This document shows positions 12,182 to 48,658 of a DNA stretch of 64,000 bases, piece by piece. The first letter of the stretch is position 1. Each line of letters opens with the position of its first letter. The notes below the pieces were generated by a model. It worked only from the letters and a program-made list of their open reading frames with translations, was not told where the DNA came from and made no database searches. Location of the stretch: positions 3,940 to 67,939 of the forward strand of contig CAZHRU010000003.1 of assembly GCA_964535015.1 (NCBI GenBank), given 5' to 3'. Both the position numbers and the translations under genes were made by a program. Source of the stretch: an uncultured Verrucomicrobiota bacterium (GTDB taxonomy: Bacteria > Verrucomicrobiota > Kiritimatiellia > CAIKKV01 > CAITUY01).

Positions 12182-13361
12182 CGTGGCGGATAAAGCGACC
12201 ACGGAGACTGCGCGTCCCAAGGTTCTGGTTATTGATGATGAACGGGGTCCGCGTGAGAGTCTGCGGATCCTGTTGAAGACGGAATACGACGTGTTGTGCG
12301 CCGAGTCGGTGGATGTCGGGGTTACGATGTTGAAGGAGCATCATCCCGACATGGTGATCATGGACATCCGGATGCCGGGCAAGAGCGGCATTGAGGGGTT
12401 GAAGGCGATCCGCGACCTGGACACGGCGGTGTCCGTGGTGATGTTCACTGGATTCGGGGCGCTGGAAACGGCGCAGGAAGCCATCCGGCTGGGGGCCAAC
12501 GATTATCTCAAGAAGCCGTTCGATGCCTTTGAAATCCGTGAGGTGGTGCACCGGTATGTGCGGCGCACTCAGGTGGAAAGGCGCCGACGGCAGACCGTTG
12601 ATGAACTGGGGCAACTCAATCAGACGCTCAAGGAAGAGTTGGTGCGGAAAGAGCATCTGGCGGTTCTGGGGCGGAAGTCCGCGGAACTGATGCACGACAT
12701 ACGGCAGCCGTTGACGGCGGTCACGGCGTATGTGGACCTGTTGTCCTCCGAGTTGAAGGACGTCCAGACCCATTTTGGGGACCGCTGGCAGGAGACCTCG
12801 GCGTACCTTGATAAAATCGAAAATGGCGCGGAACGGTGCAGGCGACTGGCGGACATGTGGCTGGACATCAGCCGTGGGAAACTGAACCGCGCACCGATTC
12901 GGGTTCAGGAGATTGGTGATGCCGTGGTGCATGACTGTCGTTCGCTGGTTGACGAGAGGAAGGTGGTCCTGATGGTCGAGATGGATGATGGAGCCACTGT
13001 GATCAATGTTGACAGGATGCAGTACACGCGGGCGCTTCAGAATCTCCTGGTGAATGCCGTTGAGGCGGTTCAACCTGGCACTGGACGGGTGAAGGTGTGG
13101 TGCCGGTGTGATGGGGGACAGGTTGAACTGGGTGTTGAGGATAACGGCTGCGGGATGAGTCCGGAGCAAATCAAGCGTTCGGTGGAGCCTTTCTTCAGCA
13201 CCAAACCGGGAACGGGAACGGGTCTTGGGTTGTTCATTGCGCGTCAGGCGGTGGAAGCGCATGGTGGCACGATGCGGATTGAGAGTGAGACTGGCAAGGG
13301 GACGAGGATCACGATAACGGCGCCCTGTGGTGATAATACAAGTAGTCAGAATCCAGAATGA
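12165..13361 (+). CDS. Hybrid two-component protein: receiver domain fused to HisKA/HATPase_c kinase core. Alternative GTG start at 12183.
   Basis: REC domain KVLVIDDERGPRESL...MDIRMPGKSG. H-box LMHDIRQPLTAVTAYVDLL. ATPase EDNGCGMSPEQIKRSVEPFFSTKPGTGTGLGLFIARQ. Confidence 0.8.
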   Translation: MAAHSDVADKATTETARPKVLVIDDERGPRESLRILLKTEYDVLCAESVDVGVTMLKEHHPDMVIMDIRMPGKSGIEGLKAIRDLDTAVSVVMFTGFGALETAQEAIRLGANDYLKKPFDAFEIREVVHRYVRRTQVERRRRQTVDELGQLNQTLKEELVRKEHLAVLGRKSAELMHDIRQPLTAVTAYVDLLSSELKDVQTHFGDRWQETSAYLDKIENGAERCRRLADMWLDISRGKLNRAPIRVQEIGDAVVHDCRSLVDERKVVLMVEMDDGATVINVDRMQYTRALQNLLVNAVEAVQPGTGRVKVWCRCDGGQVELGVEDNGCGMSPEQIKRSVEPFFSTKPGTGTGLGLFIARQAVEAHGGTMRIESETGKGTRITITAPCGDNTSSQNPE

Positions 13362-13393
13362 ATCACCGACGAGCGCAAAGGCTAGTGTGCAAA

Positions 13394-13420
13394 GGGAGTG
13401 AGTTTATTGCTCCCTATTCT
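13394..13420 (+). terminator. Putative bidirectional terminator hairpin between convergent genes.
   Basis: Stem-loop GGGAG-tgagtttattg-CTCCC followed by TATTCT. It is flanked by an imperfect inverted repeat cagaatccagaa / ttctgaattctg (13346-13440). Confidence 0.45.
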
Positions 13421-15117
13421 GAACCCTGACTTCTGAATTCTGAATACCCATCCGGTAATGCCGTATGGTTGATGGAACGGGCGAGATCGCTGATGGTGTC
13501 CGTGTCGCCTGAGAAGAAGGCGCCGAGGGCCGTGTCACGGAAGAGGCCAGCCTCCATGCCGGCCTGAACGCTCATCAGGTAGGTTTCGTCGCTGATGGAG
13601 GTGGGGATTCCGAGGCGACCGACTTTGCGGGCGAATGCGCCTGTCATCCCCAGCACCTTGCGGTAGGAGCGCCCGTCAATTTCGATGGGCATGGAGTTCC
13701 AGAAGCGGGGAGGCAACTGGAGTTTGACTTTCCAGGTCATGGCTACGTTGAGGTACTGGTCGGGGTCGGCGAACCGGATACGGTACTGGTCGGGCGACTG
13801 GAACCAGGCGGTTCGTGGGGCGACGATGGGTGCCTGAAGCATGAGGGAATGGAGTCCGACATTTTGAAGCAAGGTGAGAGTCTCCGCTTCCGACTGAGCG
13901 GTTTCGCCTGGACAGGGGAAGATCACGCTGCCGACGGTGAAGATTCCTGCGGCCTTGCATCGGAGGAGGGCGCGCCGGGTATCCTCGACCCGAATGCCTT
14001 TGCGTAGCGCATCCAGGATGGGTTGGGAGCCGGACTCGATGCCAAAGAAGAGGGAGACGCATCCGGACCGGCGAATGGTTTCAAAATCCGCGTCATCGGC
14101 TTCCCGGATATGGGCGAAGGAGGCGTAGCGCAGGGGGAGTTTTTCGTTCAAGGTGGCCCGTGCGAATTCGTTAAGGAGGGTATAGGGCGTGCAGGAGCCT
14201 GCGAAACGGAAGGCCCGGATCCCGTACCGGTGATCCAAGTCCCTGACTTCCGCCAGGAGGCGGGTAATACTTTTGAGGCGGACGCTCTTGTTGCTTTTCA
14301 CGGGGTGGACGCAGAAGGTGCAGGCGTTGCGGCAACCGCGGCTTTCGTCGATCACCATGATTTTGATTTTCTCGTCGCCCGCCATGGCGGGATAGACGGC
14401 GGGGTCGTAGATGGGGAGGGGAAGGTCGTCCAGATTGGCCACCATGAGTTCGTCGGTAAAGCGGATAGTGCCGCCGGGTTCCATGAAGATCAAATTGGGG
14501 ATTTCGCCCAGGGTCTTGTTTTCGGCGCCGTGGCGAGCGAGCATGACGATGGTGTGTTCGCCCTCGCCGTGGGCGAGGGCGTCGAAGACGGGGTAGCGGC
14601 GCAGGATGCGGTCCATAAAGAGATCCACATGCGGACCGCCGCCGAAGATGCGGAGGTGCGGGTGGCGATGACGCAGGATGGAGGCGAGGCGGGCGGAGCC
14701 CTCGAGGCCATCGCCATTCCAGAGTTTAAAGCCCACGGCATCGATGTGGTGTTCTTCGACGGCATCGGAAAGTTCGGCGCCGATGATCTCAATGGCCTGT
14801 TGCTGGAGGTGGCGGCGTTCGGTTTCGGCGCGTTGCAGAATCGGCAGGGCGACCAGGCGGCGCAGGGCGGTTAGAGGGCCGGGGTCCGGTTGGCGGAGGG
14901 CCTGCCACTCGCGGGCGAGGCGATGGCGGAGATCTGGGGAGGTCATCCGGCGAATCGTTCCGACGGTAGAGAAGTCGAGGATGCGGACGGTGCGACCGTC
15001 CTTGAAGAGGGCGCCGGCCAGGTTGGCCAGGCCGTTGTCGGGCATCAGGCTGTTGGGTGCGAACGGATACCCGGCATAGTTGACGAGCAGCCAGTTCTGG
15101 AGTGGTTTAGTCGGCAT
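13414..15117 (-). CDS. B12-binding-domain radical SAM enzyme (class B radical SAM; methyltransferase or other cobalamin-dependent radical enzyme).
   Basis: CxxxCxxC motif CRNACTFC. Rossmann-like N-terminal cobalamin-binding domain. 3-nt spacing from the upstream paralogue. Confidence 0.8.
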   Translation of the reverse strand: MPTKPLQNWLLVNYAGYPFAPNSLMPDNGLANLAGALFKDGRTVRILDFSTVGTIRRMTSPDLRHRLAREWQALRQPDPGPLTALRRLVALPILQRAETERRHLQQQAIEIIGAELSDAVEEHHIDAVGFKLWNGDGLEGSARLASILRHRHPHLRIFGGGPHVDLFMDRILRRYPVFDALAHGEGEHTIVMLARHGAENKTLGEIPNLIFMEPGGTIRFTDELMVANLDDLPLPIYDPAVYPAMAGDEKIKIMVIDESRGCRNACTFCVHPVKSNKSVRLKSITRLLAEVRDLDHRYGIRAFRFAGSCTPYTLLNEFARATLNEKLPLRYASFAHIREADDADFETIRRSGCVSLFFGIESGSQPILDALRKGIRVEDTRRALLRCKAAGIFTVGSVIFPCPGETAQSEAETLTLLQNVGLHSLMLQAPIVAPRTAWFQSPDQYRIRFADPDQYLNVAMTWKVKLQLPPRFWNSMPIEIDGRSYRKVLGMTGAFARKVGRLGIPTSISDETYLMSVQAGMEAGLFRDTALGAFFSGDTDTISDLARSINHTALPDGYSEFRSQGSE

Positions 15118-20639: not shown

Positions 20640-21377
20640 TTACGGGGCGGAGTCGATGGCGTAGTCGAGGGTCACGACGGCCTTGGCGGTCTTCTCAATG
20701 GAGGAGGTGTCGTACTCGCCATATCCGGAAGTGTCGGTGGAGTGCCGTTCGGTGATCTGAAAGACGCCCTGTTGCGCGGAGATCAGGGAGCCCACTTTGC
20801 CTTTGCTGCCTTTGGCGAGGGCCAGGGCACGACGGTAACCGTCATCGGTCGCCTGGGCGAGTAACCGGAGTTTCGTATCCTTCAGATCGGTGACCATGAA
20901 CATGGGGGCGGAGGCCCTGATATCCACATCGTCCCGGATCAGGTCCGTGATGCGGGTGGCGGTGTCACGGATGAGGACGACATTGGTGGAGGTGACGGTA
21001 ATGTCCTGGGTTACATCGTAATATTCGGTCTCGTTGGTTTCTTTGCCTTGGAGATCGCGTTTGGCGACTTTGGAGTTGTTGATGGTGTGAAGTACCGTTT
21101 CACTGTCGCGCAGACCCATTTGTTTTATGAGGGCGAGGGTGGCGTTGCGGCTGGACTGCAGTTTGTCGTAGGCGTCTTTCATGCTGTTCCCGCGCGCGGA
21201 ACAGGTGCAGGAGAATTTGCCGACATCGGAGGTGATATCGGCCTCGGCGTAACCTTTCACGGTGATGGCCTGTTCATGGCGGATGCGGAGGAAGAACTTG
21301 GAGAGCATCGAGGCCGACAGGATCATGCCTGCCGCCAGGATGAGGGCGGCGAGGGAGAGTTTCATCAGGTTATTCAT
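20640..21377 (-). CDS. SIMPL-domain (DUF541; YggE / 26 kDa periplasmic immunogenic protein family) protein.
   Basis: Signal peptide MNNLMKLSLAALILAAG. Real start at 21377; the track ORF is 5'-extended. Family-like segments ...ITVKGYAE...VTQDITVTS.... Confidence 0.65.
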   Translation of the reverse strand: MNNLMKLSLAALILAAGMILSASMLSKFFLRIRHEQAITVKGYAEADITSDVGKFSCTCSARGNSMKDAYDKLQSSRNATLALIKQMGLRDSETVLHTINNSKVAKRDLQGKETNETEYYDVTQDITVTSTNVVLIRDTATRITDLIRDDVDIRASAPMFMVTDLKDTKLRLLAQATDDGYRRALALAKGSKGKVGSLISAQQGVFQITERHSTDTSGYGEYDTSSIEKTAKAVVTLDYAIDSAP

Positions 21378-23247
21378 GGGGGGCCTTTGGGTTTGAGGTG
21401 TTTGTGTTATGGAGGCGAAGGATGGTTTCGACCACTTTGGCGGGGGAGAGGATATCGGTGTCGATCTGGTGGGGTATGGATCCGTACAGGGATTTTCGTT
21501 TTTCGAGCAACTCCCGGATACGCTGGAGGCGGTCCTGCTCCTCAAGGAGGGGGCGGTGGTTTGCCTTGGCGGTGCGCTTGAAGATGGTATCGGGCGAGGC
21601 AGTCAGGCAGACCATCAGGCCGGTGCGCTGGTAATCGCGGATGTTGTCGGGGTTAAGGACGACCCCGCCGCCACAACCGATCACCAGTCCCTGGCGGGCG
21701 GATAATTCCTTGGTGAGTTCGCGTTCCATGTTGCGGAAATGGGGTTCGCCCTCCTCGGCAAAGATACGGGTGATGGATTTGCCGGCTCGCGCCTCGATCA
21801 TGTGGTCCATGTCGATGAACTCCATGTTGAGTCGGTTGGCCAGTTGTTTGCCGACGGTGGTTTTTCCGGTTCCCATAAAGCCCATGAGGACGATGTTCTT
21901 TTGGGAAGGATTGATGGTTGATGGTTGATGGTTGATGGAAGAGGAGAAGACCTGGATGCCGTCGCGGAAGGTCATGACGGCGCGTCCCTGGAGGGACCAG
22001 CCTTCGAACGGGGTGTTGCGGGATTTCGAGGCAAAGGAGTCGGCATGGACAGTCCATTCGGTGTTCAGGTCGAGGAGGACCAGGTTGGCGGGTTGGCCCA
22101 GGGCGAGGCTGGGGGGTGGCAGGCCCAGGATGGCGGCGGGGCCGGTGGTCCAGCGGGCCACCCAGTCCGTCAGGGAAAGGAGTCCTTTGCGGACGAGGAG
22201 GGAGAAGGTGACGCCGACGGCGGTTTCGAGGCCGATGACGCCGAAGGGGGCCCCGGTGAAACCGCGGGCCTTGGAAGCGGCGGTGTGGGGCGCGTGATCG
22301 GTGGCGAAGCAGGCGATGGTGCCATCAACGAGGCCATGTATGAGTTCCTCGCGATCGGCGAAGGATCGCAGGGGTGGATTCATCTTGAAGGCATCCGCAC
22401 AGTCGGGGCGGACGTCGTCATCGGTCAGGGCGAGATGATGGGGGGTCAGTTCGGCAGAGACGTGGAGTCCGCGTTGTTGGGCGTTGCGGATCAGTCTGAC
22501 GGATTCACCGGCGGAGAGGTGTTGGATATGGATGGCGCCGCCGGTGGTTTCGGCCAGGCGGATATCGCGGGCGACGATGGCGGTCTCGGCTTCGGAGGGA
22601 ATGCCGGGCAGGTTGAGGGTTTGGGATCGGAGTCCATCATGCATGACGCCGTTGCCGGCGAGGCGCGGGTCGAGGGCGTGATCCATGAGCGGGTGACCGG
22701 TGGCGGCAGAGCGCCGCATGGCTTCCTCCATGAGGGAGGTATTGGTGACGGTGCAACCGTCGTCGGTAAAGGCCACGGCGCCGGCCCGGGCAAGCGCCTC
22801 GATATCGGTGAGGGCGTGGCCGGCGCGGTTGCGGGTGATGCAGGGGGCGGGCAGGACACGGGCGAGGTTGGCGGCGGCGGCGCGGGTGGCGAGGGTGGCG
22901 ATCTCGGCCGGGCAATCCATGGCGGGATTGGTGTTTGGCATGGCGACGATGGTGGTGAAGCCGCCTTGGACAGCGGCCCGGCAGGCGGTTTCGACGGATT
23001 CCGCCGCTTCGTTGCCGGGCTGGCGCAAATGGACATGCAGGTCAATCAGGCCCGGCACGGCCACAAGGTTGGTGCCGTCAATGACGGTACAGTCCGGGGG
23101 AAGGGAGGAATGGTTGATGGTTAATGGTTGATGGAGAATGGGGAGAGGGGCAAAGACGCCGTTTTGGATGAAGAGGTCGCCGATGAAATCCCGGTTTGAG
23201 ACGGGGTCCACGATGCGGGCGTTCTTGATATACCATGAAGGGTTCAT
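21370..23247 (-). CDS. pyrC: Dihydroorotase (class I amidohydrolase, PyrC-like) fused in-frame to a C-terminal shikimate kinase (AroK) domain. Alternatively, two genes whose separation was erased by a repeat insertion.
   Basis: DHOase motifs VPGLIDLHVHLRQPG and ATDHAPH. After ...AVMTFRDGIQVF the linker SSSINHQPSTINPSQK is encoded by (TTGATGG)4. AroK P-loop NIVLMGFMGTGKTTVG with no intervening stop. Real start MNPSWYIKNARIVDP at 23247. Confidence 0.7.
   Translation of the reverse strand: MNPSWYIKNARIVDPVSNRDFIGDLFIQNGVFAPLPILHQPLTINHSSLPPDCTVIDGTNLVAVPGLIDLHVHLRQPGNEAAESVETACRAAVQGGFTTIVAMPNTNPAMDCPAEIATLATRAAAANLARVLPAPCITRNRAGHALTDIEALARAGAVAFTDDGCTVTNTSLMEEAMRRSAATGHPLMDHALDPRLAGNGVMHDGLRSQTLNLPGIPSEAETAIVARDIRLAETTGGAIHIQHLSAGESVRLIRNAQQRGLHVSAELTPHHLALTDDDVRPDCADAFKMNPPLRSFADREELIHGLVDGTIACFATDHAPHTAASKARGFTGAPFGVIGLETAVGVTFSLLVRKGLLSLTDWVARWTTGPAAILGLPPPSLALGQPANLVLLDLNTEWTVHADSFASKSRNTPFEGWSLQGRAVMTFRDGIQVFSSSINHQPSTINPSQKNIVLMGFMGTGKTTVGKQLANRLNMEFIDMDHMIEARAGKSITRIFAEEGEPHFRNMERELTKELSARQGLVIGCGGGVVLNPDNIRDYQRTGLMVCLTASPDTIFKRTAKANHRPLLEEQDRLQRIRELLEKRKSLYGSIPHQIDTDILSPAKVVETILRLHNTNTSNPKAPHE
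21911..21938. repeat. Tandem heptanucleotide repeat (TTGATGG)x4, located in-frame at the PyrC/AroK junction.
   Basis: Direct reading: ttgatggttgatggttgatggttgatgg. Confidence 0.9.
23109..23141. repeat. Degenerate heptamer tract (aatgg ttgatgg ttaatgg ttgatgg agaatgg) inserted in-frame in the N-terminal loop of PyrC.
   Basis: Encodes the extra PILHQPLTINHSS segment between conserved DHOase beta-strands. Same family as the 21911 and 26127 tracts. Confidence 0.85.
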
Positions 23248-23352
23248 ATGTCGGACTTGATGTATACACCAGCGGCGGCTTGACAGAAAAGCGATAAATG
23301 GTAGTTTGAACCCCTTTTCAGTGGGATTGCAGAGGTTAGTGAGGGACAAACG

Positions 23353-23487
23353 ATGAAGATGACGTATCAGCCGAAGAAGAAGAAGCGCCAGCGCAAGTGT
23401 GGTTTCAGGAAACGTATGAAGACGGTTGGAGGCCGCAGGGTGATTGCCAGTCGCCGTCAAAAGGGTCGGAAAAAGCTTTCCGAGTAA
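23353..23487 (+). CDS. rpmH: 50S ribosomal protein L34.
   Basis: Not in the ORF track (44 aa). Translation [44 protein letters not shown] matches the L34 consensus, and rnpA lies downstream. Confidence 0.9.
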
Positions 23488-23658
23488 CAGCGCCTGTTCG
23501 GCCCGAAGGGGCAGGGAACGACGATGAACGCCGTTACCCGCAGGCGTGTGGAGGCAACTCCACGCTGGCGGGTGGCGCTTTGCCCGGGTGGGCAGAGCCG
23601 GCGTTCATTTTGTGTTTCAGGAGGCGGTTCGCGGGAATGGCGGGCATGGAAGAATGCG

Positions 23659-24048
23659 ATGACGACAGACCGGACAGCCGAATCAGGGAAGGTGAAGCGG
23701 CCGGACGTCGGGTTGTGCCGGGCCCAGCGGTTGACCCGGCCTGAGGATTTTACGGCCATCTATGAGCAGGGCCGGTCCATGGCGGGGCGGTGCATGGTGT
23801 TGTGGGTGGGGAAAGGGCCGGGCACGTCGCTGCGTCTGGGCGTGGTGGCCAGTCGTGTGATTGGCGACGCGGTGCGCCGGAACCGGGCGAAGCGGCGGTT
23901 GCGGGAAGTCTGGCGACTGAACCGGCACCGGTGGACGGCGGATGTGGATGTTATTCTGGTGGCCCGGCGGACGATTATTTTGGCGAGCTGGGAGGACGTG
24001 GTGGCTGACCTTCTGAAACTGGCGCGAAAGGCGGGACTGGGGGCATGA
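23659..24048 (+). CDS. rnpA: Ribonuclease P protein component.
   Basis: Family segment RLTRPEDFTAIYEQGRSMAGRCMVLWV...RRNRAKRRLRE. Start ambiguous: track 23524, probable 23659. Sits in the rpmH-rnpA-yidD-yidC order. Confidence 0.8.
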   Translation: MTTDRTAESGKVKRPDVGLCRAQRLTRPEDFTAIYEQGRSMAGRCMVLWVGKGPGTSLRLGVVASRVIGDAVRRNRAKRRLREVWRLNRHRWTADVDVILVARRTIILASWEDVVADLLKLARKAGLGA

Positions 24049-24293
24049 TCCGCAAGGCGTTCATTCTGCTGATCAAAGGGTATCAGCGCAGTCTGGCGTT
24101 GATCCTTGGCGGGCAGTGCCGGTTTTATCCGACCTGTTCGGCGTATGGAATTGAGGCGATTGAGACGCATGGGGTCCTGCGGGGAATCCTGTTGGGGGCC
24201 CGGCGTGTGGTGCGGTGTCATCCCTTTCATCCGGGAGGCGTGGATCCGGTTCCGCCGCGGGTGGAGCGGGGTGGTGTCGTGCGAGAACGATAA
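24045..24293 (+). CDS. yidD: Membrane protein insertion efficiency factor YidD.
   Basis: Family segment LIKGYQRSLALILGGQCRFYPTCSAYGIEAIETHG. 4-nt overlap with rnpA. Confidence 0.85.
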   Translation: MIRKAFILLIKGYQRSLALILGGQCRFYPTCSAYGIEAIETHGVLRGILLGARRVVRCHPFHPGGVDPVPPRVERGGVVRER

Positions 24294-24328
24294 GACGGGC
24301 TGGGAAACAGCCCTTTGGAGTACAGGCG

Positions 24329-26137
24329 ATGAGCAAGCAGAAATTACCGATCAAAGACATCCTGATAATCGCGGCGCTGTTTGGCGCCATGTTGGCCTGG
24401 GGGCCTGTGTACCAGAAGTTCCTGGCACCGCCGCCCGTGGCGGTGACGCCCGGCGTTGTCACGGAGGCCACCACTAATGCGGTGCCGCCGCCAGTCGAGG
24501 TAGTGGCGCCAGTCGTCGTCAAGGCGCAACCGGCGGTGGTGGATGCGCCGGTGTTGCAGGCGGCCACCACTGCGCGGAGGCCCGAGGAAACCTTCGTCAT
24601 CAGCAACCAGTTTATTCATGCGACCCTGACGTCGCGCGGGGGCGGCGTGGTGTCCGTTGAGTTGCCGTCTTTTTCGGTGACCAAGAAGGATCTGCGTCCG
24701 GTGGTGTTGGATTTCAAACGGTTCCCGGCACTGGCGTACGAAGGCTGGGAAGGATTGGATGTCGGCGCTGATTATTCGATCACGGTGCTTTCCAACGGTG
24801 TGGCGGCCCGGTTGGAAGCGACGCGGGCGGACGGGGTCCGGTTGGAGCGCCATATTGCGCTGGGCGAACGTTACCTGCTGACGGTGCAGGATCGTCTGAT
24901 CAACACGGCTGGCGAGGTGCGGGCGGTACCGGCGGTGGCGATGACATTGGGCGACATGGAGATGCTCGAGGGTGAGGAGCGGATGACCGGGGTGGAGTTT
25001 CTGGGGATTGACTCCCTGCCGTCGGCGGGTGGCGGAGGGGTGCGGCACTGGATGAGCAAGCGGTGGTTTTCGGATGATCTGACGGTGGCGGACTATTTTC
25101 AGGAGGAACCGATTCGCGGTCACGGTTGCATTGGCCGGCCGAAGATGACCAAACCGCTGCCACACCGCGTCCGGGAGCGGATCAGCCAGAACATGGATTG
25201 GGTGGCGGCGAGGAACAAGTATTTCGTGCAGATCCTGGCGCCGCAAGGCGGGGCGGTGGGGTGTGATCTGATTGCCGACCGGGAGGTGGATCCCACGGAG
25301 GATCCCGCGCAGAGCCGGTCATGGGCCAGTGTGGCGGTGCCTTTGCGCGTGGCGGGTGCGGTGCGGTTCCCTGAACGGGTGCTGGCGCCGGGCGAGGCGG
25401 CGGTGCGTTCGCTGGAGTACTATGTCGGGCCGAAGGAGCTTTCCACCATCAGGCCGCTGGGTCGTCACATGAAGGAAGTGATGGACTTCGGAACGTTGAA
25501 GTGGGTTTGCGAGATTCTGGTTGTGGCGCTGACCTGGCTATACGCGGTGATTCCCAACTACGGGGTGGCGATCATCCTGTTGACCCTGATCGTGCGGGTG
25601 ATCTTCTGGCCCCTGACGCACAAGGGTACGGAGAGTATGAAGCGGATGCAGGAACTGCAGCCGAAGGTGAAGGCGTTGCAGGATCAATACCGCGACAAGC
25701 CGCAGAAGCTTCAGCAGGAGACCATGGCGTTATACCGGGAAAACAAGGTCAATCCGCTGGGCGGGTGTCTGCCGATGCTGATCCAGATTCCGGTGTTCTT
25801 TGCTTTGTTCAATGTGCTGCGCAGCGGGATTGAGTTGCGTTATGCGGGGTTCCTGTGGATTGGCGACTTGAGCGCCGCGGAGAACCTGTTGGCGGGGGTG
25901 TTGCCTTTCCCGATCAACATCCTGCCGCTCGTGATGGCGGCCACGCAGGCGTGGCAGCAGCATCTGACGCCTTCGGCGGGCGACCCGGCGCAACAGAAGA
26001 TGATGATGTTCATGCCGGTGATCATGTTGCTGTTCCTGTACTCCATGCCGTCAGGGCTGGTGTTGTACTGGACGGCCAACCAGGTGATGATGATCGTCCA
26101 GTTGTTATGGCAGCGGCGGATGAAGAAGAATGGTTAA
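24329..26137 (+). CDS. yidC: Membrane protein insertase YidC.
   Basis: N-terminal TM segment. Conserved C-terminal insertase core YGVAIILLTLIVRVIFWPLT...NPLGGCLPMLIQIPVFFALF. The stop TAA lies inside a heptamer tract. Confidence 0.9.
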   Translation: MSKQKLPIKDILIIAALFGAMLAWGPVYQKFLAPPPVAVTPGVVTEATTNAVPPPVEVVAPVVVKAQPAVVDAPVLQAATTARRPEETFVISNQFIHATLTSRGGGVVSVELPSFSVTKKDLRPVVLDFKRFPALAYEGWEGLDVGADYSITVLSNGVAARLEATRADGVRLERHIALGERYLLTVQDRLINTAGEVRAVPAVAMTLGDMEMLEGEERMTGVEFLGIDSLPSAGGGGVRHWMSKRWFSDDLTVADYFQEEPIRGHGCIGRPKMTKPLPHRVRERISQNMDWVAARNKYFVQILAPQGGAVGCDLIADREVDPTEDPAQSRSWASVAVPLRVAGAVRFPERVLAPGEAAVRSLEYYVGPKELSTIRPLGRHMKEVMDFGTLKWVCEILVVALTWLYAVIPNYGVAIILLTLIVRVIFWPLTHKGTESMKRMQELQPKVKALQDQYRDKPQKLQQETMALYRENKVNPLGGCLPMLIQIPVFFALFNVLRSGIELRYAGFLWIGDLSAAENLLAGVLPFPINILPLVMAATQAWQQHLTPSAGDPAQQKMMMFMPVIMLLFLYSMPSGLVLYWTANQVMMIVQLLWQRRMKKNG

Positions 26138-26154
26138 TGGTTCATGGTTGATGG
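26127..26154. repeat. Heptamer tract agaatgg ttaatgg ttcatgg ttgatgg between yidC and plsY.
   Basis: Same (W)T(N)ATGG heptamer family as the tracts in pyrC. Contains the yidC stop and the first in-frame ATG of the plsY ORF. Confidence 0.85.
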
Positions 26155-26161
26155 GGGAAAT

Positions 26162-26830
26162 ATGAACTGCTTCTGTTGTGGGCAATCGGGGTGGGTGATC
26201 GGGTTTGGCGTGGTGGCGTACCTGGTGGGGGCGATTCCGTTCGGGTTGTTGATTTCGCGGGCGAAGGGTGTGGACATCCGCAAGGTGGGGAGCGGGAACA
26301 TTGGCGCCACGAATGTGTTCCGGGCCGTCAGCAAGCCGCTGGGGATCCTGACGTTTGTGGCAGACGCCCTGAAGGGGTGGGTGCCCGCCTGGGTGTTTCC
26401 GCTGGTGGTGGCGAGGGTCGTGGAGGCGGGGGTTCCCGGAGAACTCGGGTTGGCCTATGGGGCGTTGGCGATCATGGGGCATACCTGGCCGGTGTATCTC
26501 GGGTTCAAGGGGGGGAAGGGCGTGGCCACGAGCGCCGGGGCGCTGATCGGGATTGCTCCGGCGGCGACGGGAGTTGGACTACTCTGCTGGGTGTTGGTGT
26601 TTGCGGTGTCGCGCTATGTGTCCCTGGCATCCATGGTGGCGGCGGCAACGGTGGCGGTGGCCGCCTGGGTTATGTATCGCGGAGCGGGTTTGGGATTGCC
26701 GGTGGCGTTGACGGTGCTGTCGGCATTGATTGTCTGGCGTCACAAGGCGAATATCCGGCGTCTGTTGGATGGCACGGAGCACCGGTTTTCCAAGAAGAAA
26801 TCAGCGGCGGCGGATCCTGCGGCGCAGTGA
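26162..26830 (+). CDS. plsY: Glycerol-3-phosphate acyltransferase PlsY.
   Basis: Family segment GSGNIGATNVFRAVSKPLGILTFVADALKG. Multi-TM protein. Start 26144 or 26162. Confidence 0.85.
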   Translation: MNCFCCGQSGWVIGFGVVAYLVGAIPFGLLISRAKGVDIRKVGSGNIGATNVFRAVSKPLGILTFVADALKGWVPAWVFPLVVARVVEAGVPGELGLAYGALAIMGHTWPVYLGFKGGKGVATSAGALIGIAPAATGVGLLCWVLVFAVSRYVSLASMVAAATVAVAAWVMYRGAGLGLPVALTVLSALIVWRHKANIRRLLDGTEHRFSKKKSAAADPAAQ

Positions 26831-43089: not shown

Positions 43090-44172
43090 TCACAAGCGGT
43101 TGAGGATGGTGCTGCCGCGTTCGAAGAACCACTGGAGTGTATCGTGTTCGACCTCGGGCGGGATCGAGTGGTCGGAAGCGACGATCACGCCGCTTCCCCC
43201 CTTCAACACGGGAATGATTTTCCGGTTGAGTTCCTCGTCAATCAGTGCTCGATCGTTGCTCGCGAGAATCCGGATGTCAATGTTGCCGCAGAAGGTGATG
43301 CGGTCCCCGTACTGTTTTGCCAGTCGCGGCATATCCATACCCGCCTTGACCTCCATGGCCTGCAGGCAGTCCATGCCTGCAGAGATCAGGCCGGGCACCA
43401 GGGGTTCGACGAACCCGCAGGAATGAACGACGACCTTCAATCCCTTGGAGTGTGCGTAGTCGAAGAGAAGTTTGTGGCCGGGCATGACCAGTTCCTCGTA
43501 CATCGCGGGCGACATGAAGGGTTTCTCCTTGAACCCCATGTCCTCGAAGAACCAGATGAAATCGGGAGTTCCTTCTTCGGCGAAGAGGACCTCCAGATGC
43601 ATGATGGTCATGCGGGCATAGGTCATGACCATGTCCAGGACCCAGTCGGGGTCCAGGCCCATGCCCATGAGCATGTACTCATGACCGCAGACCGGGTGCA
43701 TTTGCTCGAAGGGCGCCACACCGTGCCAGCAGAATGCGCGGCCTTCTGCCGCGGCCAAGGCCTTTTGGTTCCGGTACCCTTCAAAGGGGATGCGGCGGCG
43801 ATCCACCTTCAGGAGGTGCGGTTTGATCATGGATTCCCAGGGGCCCCGTTCCTGGACGGCGAAGTCCACATGTTCCGGTGTTCCGGAGCGTGCCTTCCAC
43901 CAGCGCAAGGTGGCGCCGTTGCCGTTAAGCACCAGTTTGGTTTCGGCGGTTTCCTCCAGAAGTTTGTCAGTGAAGTCCAGGTCGGCAGTGCTGTTCAGCC
44001 AGCCGCCGGAACGCCAACTCATGTTGAAATGGGTGACGGCATCTTCGTTGGTCCGTAGTTTGCCTTGGGCCGCGTACTTCACCCGGGTCTCTCCCCACAA
44101 TGAATCCCCGTAGGGCAACGCATCCACGGGTTTGCGGTTCAACGTATTCAACAAGCGCGTTTTGTGTGTCAT
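43090..44172 (-). CDS. Uroporphyrinogen decarboxylase (URO-D) family protein (MtaA/CmuA-like methyltransferase or decarboxylase homologue).
   Basis: Start MTHKTRLLNTLNRKPVDALPYGDSLWGE at 44172. URO-D-like core, and the family-like segment ...HSCGFVEPLVPGLISAGMDCLQ.... Confidence 0.55.
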   Translation of the reverse strand: MTHKTRLLNTLNRKPVDALPYGDSLWGETRVKYAAQGKLRTNEDAVTHFNMSWRSGGWLNSTADLDFTDKLLEETAETKLVLNGNGATLRWWKARSGTPEHVDFAVQERGPWESMIKPHLLKVDRRRIPFEGYRNQKALAAAEGRAFCWHGVAPFEQMHPVCGHEYMLMGMGLDPDWVLDMVMTYARMTIMHLEVLFAEEGTPDFIWFFEDMGFKEKPFMSPAMYEELVMPGHKLLFDYAHSKGLKVVVHSCGFVEPLVPGLISAGMDCLQAMEVKAGMDMPRLAKQYGDRITFCGNIDIRILASNDRALIDEELNRKIIPVLKGGSGVIVASDHSIPPEVEHDTLQWFFERGSTILNRL

Positions 44173-44290
44173 GGGTATTTTCCTGCTGATGACAATTTCG
44201 ACAGGGGGTAAATGGTGCAAGTTGCCGGCATCATTTGCAAGTCCTGACATCATTCCCGGAGCATGTTTGGGTTTTGGCATCCACAGTGTT

Positions 44291-44388
44291 TGGCGTCACG
44301 CCGTGACGTCCTACAGAATCCAGAATGTGTAGGACCGCACGGTGTGCGGTCGCAATCCAGAAGGGGTGGGGCCGCACGGTGTGCGGTC
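44291..44388. promoter_or_regulatory. Divergent promoter region carrying three palindromes: GTCACG-c-CGTGAC and two copies of CCGCACGG-T-GTGCGG(TC).
   Basis: Palindromes at 44293-44309, 44333-44351 and 44371-44388, ~40 bp apart. CAGAATCCAGAATG motif at 44314-44327. Confidence 0.5.
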
Positions 44389-44513
44389 GGAGTTTGCGTA
44401 TGGCCGCGCTGAGACGTGGAGAGGCGCGTGGGGGATTCGTGAAAAGTCGTGACTAATCCTGCGGAAACCGTTAAACAACCCGCGCTACACATCATGGAAA
44501 GGGTAGAATTCAC

Positions 44514-48473: not shown

Positions 48474-48658
48474 ACATGTCAGGGATGCCGTGGATGTTCA
48501 CCGTTTGCCTCCACCGGCGCAAGGCCGGTGGGCGGCGAAGTCACGGGGATGCCGGTGGGCGGCGAAGTCACGGGGATGCCGGTGGGCGGCGAAGTCACGG
48601 GGATGCCGTGGACGTTCAACGTTTGCCTCCACCGGCGCAAGGCCGGTGGGCGGCGAAG
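48474..48658. repeat. Complex tandem repeat: 27-bp unit GGTGGGCGGCGAAGTCACGGGGATGCC x3 (plus partial copies) interleaved with two 37-bp hairpin units (...GTTTGCCTCCACCGGC-GCAAG-GCCGGTGG...).
   Basis: Direct reading of 48482-48658. 8-bp perfect stems with GCAAG loops. Intergenic, between the amt and tetR promoters. The overlapping track ORFs 48430..48726 and 48467..48733 are repeat artefacts. Confidence 0.85.

Follow-up and report, generated by a model that had tools for sequence, protein, structure and literature searches.

We examined three short tandem tracts of TTGATGG-type heptamers in a 64-kb stretch of DNA from an uncultured Kiritimatiellia bacterium (the window hereafter), two of them within a gene for a fused dihydroorotase and shikimate kinase (PyrC-AroK) and one at the junction between yidC and plsY. 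We consider it probable that these tracts are heptanucleotide simple-sequence repeats (SSRs; unit TTGATGG, or CCATCAA on the other strand) that would be made by slippage and filtered by selection, and that occasionally fuse or split genes. Comparison with related genomes showed that the indels of this region are concentrated in the tracts and that a change of 14 nt in the linker tract fuses or splits PyrC and AroK between near-identical strains.

The tracts had first been reported in a reading of the letters alone (the sequence-only reading) as runs of the units TTGATGG, TTAATGG, TTCATGG and AGAATGG. The three positions and the four units were confirmed by the window sequence and by Tandem Repeats Finder (TRF). 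The program reported tract 1 at 21911-21938 (period 7, 4.0 copies, 100% matches), tract 2 at 23110-23134 (period 7, 3.6 copies) and also, with period 14, at 23108-23141, and tract 3 at 26129-26154 (period 7, 3.7 copies), the last two being imperfect. Counts of repeat sites refer to the 64-kb window. The spaced pattern ATGGTTNATGG was matched 10 times, always on the + strand, against 0.23 matches expected from dinucleotide-preserving shuffles, and none of 100 shuffles reached 10. Single copies of TTGATGG numbered 27, of which 20 were outside the tracts, for 13.3 expected. We considered the single heptamer as a dispersed binding word and rejected this candidate, its enrichment being no greater than the strand skew predicts. 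Since the isolated word is unremarkable outside the tracts, the signal lies in the tandem arrays and not in the word itself. The same unit was found at several loci, with four sites in the window and more in relatives. The fourth of these sites is a short one, read as S-I-N-H in the C-terminal tail of an open reading frame (ORF) for a B12-binding radical-SAM protein (Table 1).

Table 1. Positions of the heptamer tracts in the window and of the genes in which or next to which they lie.
Feature	Position	Strand	Description
Tract 1	21911..21938	-	(CCATCAA)x4 on the coding strand, perfect; the only perfect period-7 run in the window
Tract 2	23108..23141	-	Coding strand CCATTCT CCATCAA CCATTAA CCATCAA CCATTC
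Tract 3	26127..26154	+	AGAATGG TTAATGG TTCATGG TTGATGG, sense to the yidC-plsY operon
Fourth short site	13465..13475	-	ATGGTTGATGG on the + strand, 1.6 units; same TTGATGG family
pyrC-aroK fused gene	21370..23247	-	625 aa from ATG 23247; Pfam Amidohydro_1/DHOase and SKI
yidC	24329..26137	+	602 aa from ATG 24329; Pfam 60KD_IMP, YidC_periplas; stop within tract 3
plsY	26162..26830	+	Likely start ATG 26162; alternative ATG 26144 inside tract 3
Second heptamer family (TCAGAAT type)	13344..13445	.	Last codons of two convergent genes

The sequence-only reading rightly placed tracts 1 and 2 within the pyrC/aroK ORF and gave their units as TTGATGG and its variants; pyrC-aroK is on the minus strand, however, so that what is translated is the complementary sequence, CCATCAA, and not TTGATGG. 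The peptide specified by tract 1, (S)INHQPSTIN (residues ~437-446), lies in the linker that joins the dihydroorotase and shikimate kinase domains. Tract 2 encodes ILHQPLTINH (residues 37-46) in a loop of the N-terminal part of PyrC, and this peptide is an insertion missing from 14 of the 17 aligned homologues. In the AlphaFold2 model of the fused protein, whose mean predicted local distance difference test (pLDDT) score is 85, residues 439-447, corresponding to the tract-1 peptide, have pLDDT values below 50, and the tract-2 peptide is predicted to form a coil loop with values of ~70-79. The PyrC-AroK fusion was present in about 44 of the listed homologues, and the protein P0122 is identical to that of the window. 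A spurious ORF of 399 aa (21925-23124, + strand) runs antisense to pyrC-aroK, and other long antisense ORFs were observed too. Such shadow ORFs are common in the window because its composition is skewed and GC-rich, so that naive ORF calling across the tracts misleads.

We compared the window with the syntenic loci L003, L001, L130, L131, L002, L126, L128 and L124. The closest, L003, shares 98% protein identity and 99.07% DNA identity with the window; protein identity is 90% for L130 and L131, 88% for L001, 76% for L002 and ~65% for L126 and L128, and L124 is an unfused relative. Over a block of 6.4 kb in which the window and L001 are 91.2% identical, the alignment contained only three gaps, of 21, 7 and 7 nt, all of them in tracts 1 and 2. 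At the tract-2 site, L001 has only CCATCAACCAT (1.6 units), to which the window adds exactly three units (+21 nt), and L002 is 48 nt longer than L001. The three versions are all in frame, and only frame-preserving length variants were found inside PyrC (tract 2) among the compared loci. At the tract-1 site, the array of L001 is (CCATCAACCATTCC)x3. Its extra 14 nt relative to the window put AroK out of frame with PyrC, and the gene caller accordingly split this locus into a 480-aa PyrC and a truncated SKI ORF.

The fused state was recovered in close relatives of this split allele. The alignment of L001 with L130/L131, loci from different metagenomes, extends over 14,894 nt with 18 mismatches (99.785% identity), and its sole gap is one 14-nt repeat unit in the orthologous linker tract. 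This gap restores a fused PyrC-AroK of 607 aa in L130 and L131, whereas the L001 allele is split. The remark of the sequence-only reading that a 7-nt period shifts the reading frame with each copy gained or lost was well founded, and so was its description of the tracts as fusion-generating; the tracts are indeed the places where length varies, as the three gaps between the window and L001 show. It had also proposed a look at copy-number polymorphism among strains, which is indeed present at the orthologous linker tract of the sister lineage L001/L130/L131. A search with the flanks of tract 1 separated by N{27,57} gave 0 matches in a metagenome collection that evidently lacks the Joint Genome Institute (JGI) samples of L001 and L130, and it has no bearing on the polymorphism.

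When the split allele (L001 11239-11443) was set beside the fused one (L130 4690-4816), the only upstream in-frame start that we observed for its AroK frame was the ATG in the P-loop strand (LMGFMGTGK). Judging from the sequence, expression of AroK from L001 would have to involve internal initiation, reinitiation or frameshifting, or else the split form would be a null allele at majority in one lake sample.

Between the window and L003 we counted 35 mismatches in 3.77 kb and no length change at tracts 1 and 2. The comparisons therefore gave 0 length changes at 0.9% divergence (window and L003) and 1 at 0.12% (L001 and L130/L131), which suggests that the rate of tract length change is modest. 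These counts imply an indel rate tens of times the per-site substitution rate, rather than one typical of contingency loci (1e-2 to 1e-5 per generation).

The unfused relative and the linkers of other fused proteins show how the fusion may have come about. L124 lacks heptamer arrays over 8 kb, and the stop codon of its pyrC shares bases with the ATG of aroK (ATGA). Linker length among 41 fused homologues is 4-40 aa, and these linkers are hypervariable and often shaped like translated heptamer arrays: DLKSEISNLKS corresponds to AATCTSA units, LTSHILHLT to CTCACAT units and SINHQP to CCATCAA units. The heptamer origin of the linker was confirmed at the DNA level for L128, L126 and L002, and in L126 the repeat has decayed to CCATCAA CCACCAG CCCCTCA. 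The fusion was probably created by a stop-free heptamer array that expanded across the ancestral ATGA junction, although the arrays may instead have colonised a PyrC-AroK linker that already existed.

Tract 3 reads in the same direction as the rnpA-yidD-yidC-plsY-gpsA operon. It comprises the two final codons of YidC (N-G), the stop codon TAA (26135-26137) and the spacer that leads to a GGGGGA box and the plsY start. The sequence-only reading had this stop within TTAATGG and ATG 26144 as the first ATG of the plsY ORF, both correctly. As the real start of plsY, ATG 26144 is disfavoured by the N-termini of PlsY in relatives (MMNC.., MNYHC.., from the comparison with L126 and L128) and by the GGGGGA box, which resembles a Shine-Dalgarno sequence and lies 4 nt upstream of ATG 26162; the latter is the probable start. 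The yidC gene call in L001 also gives 602 aa. The yidC-plsY spacer is of 2 nt in L128 and 13 nt in L126, with YidC ending in ..MKKA* there, and from these short junctions it follows that tract 3 is an insertion at a formerly tight yidC-plsY junction. In L002 the spacer contains an ATTCAGA/AGTCAGG heptamer array instead of TTGATGG. No special conservation of tract 3 was detected between the window and L001, the identical run of 47 nt being unexceptional when the longest runs are of 59-244 nt.

The two strands of the repeat differ in what they allow. CCATCAA contains no stop codon in any frame and is therefore allowed inside an ORF, where it is read as a flexible P/S/T/I/N/H/Q peptide. The TTGATGG/TTAATGG orientation has TGA or TAA in every frame, so that an array in this orientation can only stand at a gene end or between genes, as tract 3 does. 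Every CCATCAA-type array in these strongly skewed Kiritimatiellia loci has its C-free side on the strand that is locally rich in G, regardless of which way the gene runs. The GC skew of the window is of +0.2 to +0.3 up to ~40 kb and of +0.01 to +0.22 thereafter, independently of gene direction, and it has a like magnitude (|0.23|) in the syntenic relatives. That array orientation follows GC skew points to mutation bias rather than to an mRNA signal. A replication-strand rule did not hold across phyla, TTGATGG being on the G-rich strand in 58 of 128 arrays, and we discarded it as a general rule. The window comes from a freshwater Kiritimatiellia genome of 61% G+C, and its strand asymmetry is unusually strong for such a G+C content.

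Heptamer arrays were not confined to the TTGATGG family. With TRF and the stored gene calls, we found arrays of several families at gene boundaries throughout the related loci. Those of L128 are located between hypA and hypB, upstream of gpsA, at the 3' end of plsY, between yidD and yidC, in the pyrC-aroK linker and at the 3' end of a T2SSE gene; those of L002 are located between atpG and atpD, after aroK and in the yidC-plsY spacer. The TCAGAAT-type family occurs in this L002 spacer, at the 3' end of plsY in L128, and in the window itself, where TCAGAATCCAGAAT (13344-13358) ends a sensor-kinase ORF of the + strand and an inverted array, ATTCTGA x4.3 (13416-13445), ends the convergent B12-binding radical-SAM ORF. 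The two arms are predicted to pair around a GGGAGUGAG...CUCCC hairpin (minimum free energy -32.1 kcal/mol, z = -2.4), which may serve as a bidirectional terminator.

Other repeats were observed in passing. At 19709-19774 of L128, inverted arrays (AGGGTTC x2.4 and CCTGAAC x3.4) directly follow an NYN-domain gene, a hairpin-forming arrangement at a gene end. In the window, positions 44313-44395, just upstream of the ORF 43090-44280 (-), contain CAGAATCCAGAAT, made of TCAGAAT-type heptamers, and then two copies of a 37-nt unit, each of which holds the palindromic hairpin GACCGCACGGTGTGCGGTC, similar to repetitive extragenic palindromes (REP-like). A perfect 27-nt tandem repeat (GCCGGTGGGCGGCGAAGTCACGGGGAT, 3.1 copies) is found at 48524-48608, with no overlapping ORF of at least 100 aa. 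In L073, another Kiritimatiellia metagenome-assembled genome (MAG), (CCATCAA)3.9 at 2286-2312 is in frame and read SSINHQPSTIT, with flanks that are pyrimidine-rich like those of window tracts 1 and 2. The isolate name of this MAG carries the same sample number, 3300044611, as L001, and from its sequence motifs alone the ORF looks like an EpmA-like lysyltransferase of elongation factor P (EF-P), of the class II aminoacyl-tRNA-synthetase type.

We then placed these arrays in a wider context with a scan for exact (CCATCAA)3 in one genome per species of the GTDB, for which gene calls were crude. The repeat was present in more than 120 stretches, and the matches listed were from Bacteroidota, Cyanobacteria, Verrucomicrobiota, Lentisphaerota, Planctomycetota, Acidobacteriota, Armatimonadota and others. 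Among 128 listed arrays, 32 are inside an ORF with CCATCAA in the sense strand and none with TTGATGG in the sense strand; 18 contain the stop of a forward gene, 15 are between convergent genes and 7 between divergent genes. With these crude calls the coding share is about 32 of 114 classifiable listed arrays, to be compared with the window, where one tract of three is intercistronic and two are in low-constraint coding sequence. In the 0.89 Mb around the listed matches, we found 91 additional perfect heptamer arrays (221 heptamer arrays in all), many of which are single-base variants of the CCATCAA unit, against 20, 3, 17, 17 and 1 perfect arrays of periods 4, 5, 6, 8 and 9, respectively. These 91 extra arrays indicate that the genomes are generally heptamer-prone. 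A heptamer excess was described by Mrazek et al. (2007), according to the citations in PMC4679880 and PMC4692102.

In viral contigs, three successive units of TTGATGG were found in 39 stretches, compared with 15, 7 and 3 for the composition-matched controls TTGGATG, TTGTGAG and TGGTGTA, respectively. The corresponding numbers were 107 for TAACTGA, 34 for AATCTCA and 5 for CTCACAT. The motif preference in viral contigs is therefore real but graded. We found no description of the unit TTGATGG/CCATCAA in the searchable literature, where the exact repeat and peptide strings returned one unrelated primer match.

The tracts resemble most of all the long simple-sequence repeats (LSSRs) of Mrazek et al. 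(2007) and the short tandemly repeated repetitive (STRR) sequences of cyanobacteria, which the summaries in PMC4679880 and PMC4692102 present as repeats of unknown function, with polymerase slippage as the proposed cause. The likeness extends to tandem 7-nt units in a few recurring motif families at many loci, to heptamers far commoner than other periods, to lengths that vary between close relatives and to the lack of an associated gene class. Such repeats are recognised by a head-to-tail unit of 5-11 nt repeated beyond chance (here 3.6-4.0 copies, and 10 matches against 0.23), by its presence at several loci with heptamers prevailing over other periods (221 against at most 20, periods 4-9) and by a copy number varying by multiples of the unit (14 nt; 21, 7 and 7 nt). 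The differences are the host, here Kiritimatiellia, and the location of two of the three tracts inside an essential ORF instead of non-coding DNA.

Two other heptamer systems are close in some respects. The TAACTGA direct repeats of marine Beggiatoaceae, Cyanobacteria and Bacteroidetes (MacGregor, 2015; PMC4679880) likewise have stops in three frames one way and are open the other way, and in forward orientation they run over the stop codon of one gene and come shortly before the start of the following one. Copies in reverse orientation are found in ORFs only at the protein periphery, to be compared here with a linker and an N-terminal loop, and the distribution is patchy across phyla, Bacteroidetes and Cyanobacteria included, in both cases. 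However, the unit here is TTGATGG and its variants, and the forward start-proximal position that dominates in BOGUAY is occupied by one tract of three (tract 3), forward-orientation contexts being the minority across phyla. Moreover, orientation in this clade tracks GC skew and not the downstream gene, and TAACTGA arrays are ~2.7 times commoner than TTGATGG arrays in viral contigs (107 vs. 39). The quadruplex-forming GGGNATC / GGGGA(C/T)T repeats of Xanthomonas and Nostoc (Rehm et al., 2015; PMC4692102) are also heptamer SSRs of about four units, near ORF ends and between co-oriented genes, rarer between divergent genes (here 15 convergent vs. 7 divergent), whose length varies between related genomes at conserved positions. 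In contrast to these, the present repeats have only GG runs with loops of 5 nt and no predicted G-quadruplex (G4), and two of the tracts are coding, a location in which GGGNATC repeats are under-represented.

Under the reading that we favour, arrays would arise and change length by replication slippage in 7-nt steps, and selection would let them persist only where constraint is low, that is, in inter-domain linkers, surface loops, protein tails and intercistronic spacers. The CCATCAA orientation would be tolerated in ORFs only in the length classes that keep the frame. Low-constraint placement is what we observed at the window locus, and we infer that it could hold as a general rule. Several observations weigh against this reading. 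Slippage is known here from its expected products alone, and tract 3 is identical in the window and L001 although its flanks have diverged by 9% (91% identity). (TTGATGG)3 recurs across many phyla, and the same few heptamers, CCATCAA, AATCTCA, CTCACAT and TCAGAAT, turn up repeatedly at junctions independent of one another. The count of (TTGATGG)3 stretches in viral contigs is 2.6-13 times those of the three composition-matched controls, a preference that pure local slippage does not obviously predict.

In another reading the arrays would be functional cis-elements at operon junctions, such as that from yidC to plsY, as MacGregor (2015; PMC4679880) argued for TAACTGA in Beggiatoaceae. Arrays stand at nearly every junction of rnpA-yidD-yidC-plsY-gpsA and at hypA/hypB in L128, and another family occupies the yidC-plsY spacer of L002. 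Tract 3, identical in L001, is directly upstream of the ribosome-binding region and start of plsY, and TTGATGG provides TGA plus ATG or TTG in all frames; the preference over composition-matched controls may be added to this list. We nevertheless regard a cis-element as rather unlikely. Orientation to transcription is inconsistent, both in the window (tract 3 sense, tracts 1 and 2 antisense) and among the listed cross-phylum arrays (~57 CCATCAA-sense vs. ~31 TTGATGG-sense). Unit families have been replaced at one and the same site, L128 and L126 have no array at the yidC-plsY junction, and L124 has no arrays. The predicted RNA fold at tract 3 is not significant (z = -1.33), no Rfam match was obtained anywhere in the 64-kb window, and gene boundaries are also simply the sole places that tolerate such arrays. 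A bolder version would make TTGATGG/CCATCAA, together with AATCTCA, CTCACAT and TCAGAAT, a sequence-specific cross-phylum junction element, made or recognised by a conserved heptamer-specific activity, that in Kiritimatiellia sets translational coupling at operon junctions, the 14-nt slippage then acting as a population switch that couples and uncouples AroK and PyrC; this we hold to be decidedly unlikely. Still less probable is the insertion of TTGATGG arrays by a mobile or horizontally transferred element, which would account for one unit in many phyla, given the presence of (CCATCAA)3 in over 120 stretches of the GTDB scan and 39 viral contigs, and for tract 2, which looks as if it had been inserted de novo in a coding loop. 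Around 122 arrays we found neither conserved flanks nor element termini, the flanking DNA showing only a C-poor degenerate repeat. Neighbouring arrays are single-base variants of the unit, array sites are vertically inherited across the window, L001 and L002, and the 1.6-unit seed CCATCAACCAT of L001 differs from the window by exactly 3 units, as in-situ expansion predicts. Taken with these observations, a mobile element is very improbable.

The sequence-only reading had proposed phase variation, a suggestion that fared less well than its others. The 7-nt repeats in the hmw promoters of Haemophilus influenzae are phase-variable contingency loci of host-adapted pathogens, and the present tracts are similar in that SSR copy number alters frame or expression, in that natural strains differ and in the placement of the linker tract. 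An adaptive contingency locus would here switch AroK or the C-terminus of PyrC ON and OFF by frequent, reversible slippage. It could be argued that the 14-nt polymorphism is the only indel between strains 99.8% identical from different metagenomes and shifts the AroK frame relative to PyrC, and that tract 1 of the window is a perfect array of four units. However, an array of four units is short by the standards of hypermutable SSRs, the repeats of tracts 2 and 3 are imperfect, and the inferred rate is low, with no change of tracts 1 and 2 at 0.9% divergence (L003, 99.07% identity) and none of tract 3 at 9% (91% flank identity). The targets pyrC, aroK, yidC and plsY are housekeeping genes, essential for biosynthesis or membrane biogenesis, and not surface, host-interaction or restriction-modification genes. 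Only frame-preserving variants were seen inside PyrC, nothing points to reversibility or to selection for switching, and with the ATG inside LMGFMG as the only AroK start, the split allele looks like a tolerated or deleterious mutation rather than a designed OFF state. We thus judge a contingency switch improbable. A two-tetrad G-quadruplex on the G-rich strand (or an i-motif), built on four GG runs 5 nt apart, seems hardly credible at all. Each tract does have 4-5 units, and hence at least four GG runs, and the G4-forming heptamer repeats of Rehm et al. (2015; PMC4692102) show a preference for four units. The G-runs here are nonetheless only 2 long with loops of 5 nt, and ViennaRNA with G-quadruplexes allowed selected none for any of the three tracts. 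In addition, the conserved core of the unit is ATGG and not GG alone, and G-runs are absent from the other families (AATCTCA, CTCACAT, TCAGAAT) that occupy equivalent sites.

The heptamer-repeat phenomenon, still poorly understood, is now extended to Kiritimatiellia, and the recurrence of one unit in many phyla keeps alive the question why 7-nt units are favoured. The pyrC-aroK locus offers a clean natural case in which a gene fusion is both made and broken by a short non-triplet repeat, since the unfused ATGA state, a fused clade whose linkers look heptamer-derived and a current 14-nt polymorphism that toggles both are visible together. It provides a concrete mechanism for a "Rosetta-stone" fusion between functionally unrelated neighbours, one from the pyrimidine and the other from the shikimate pathway, and calls for caution when function prediction rests on such fusions. 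In metagenome-assembled genomes, frameshifted or "split" genes at tracts of this kind may be real alleles and not assembly errors.

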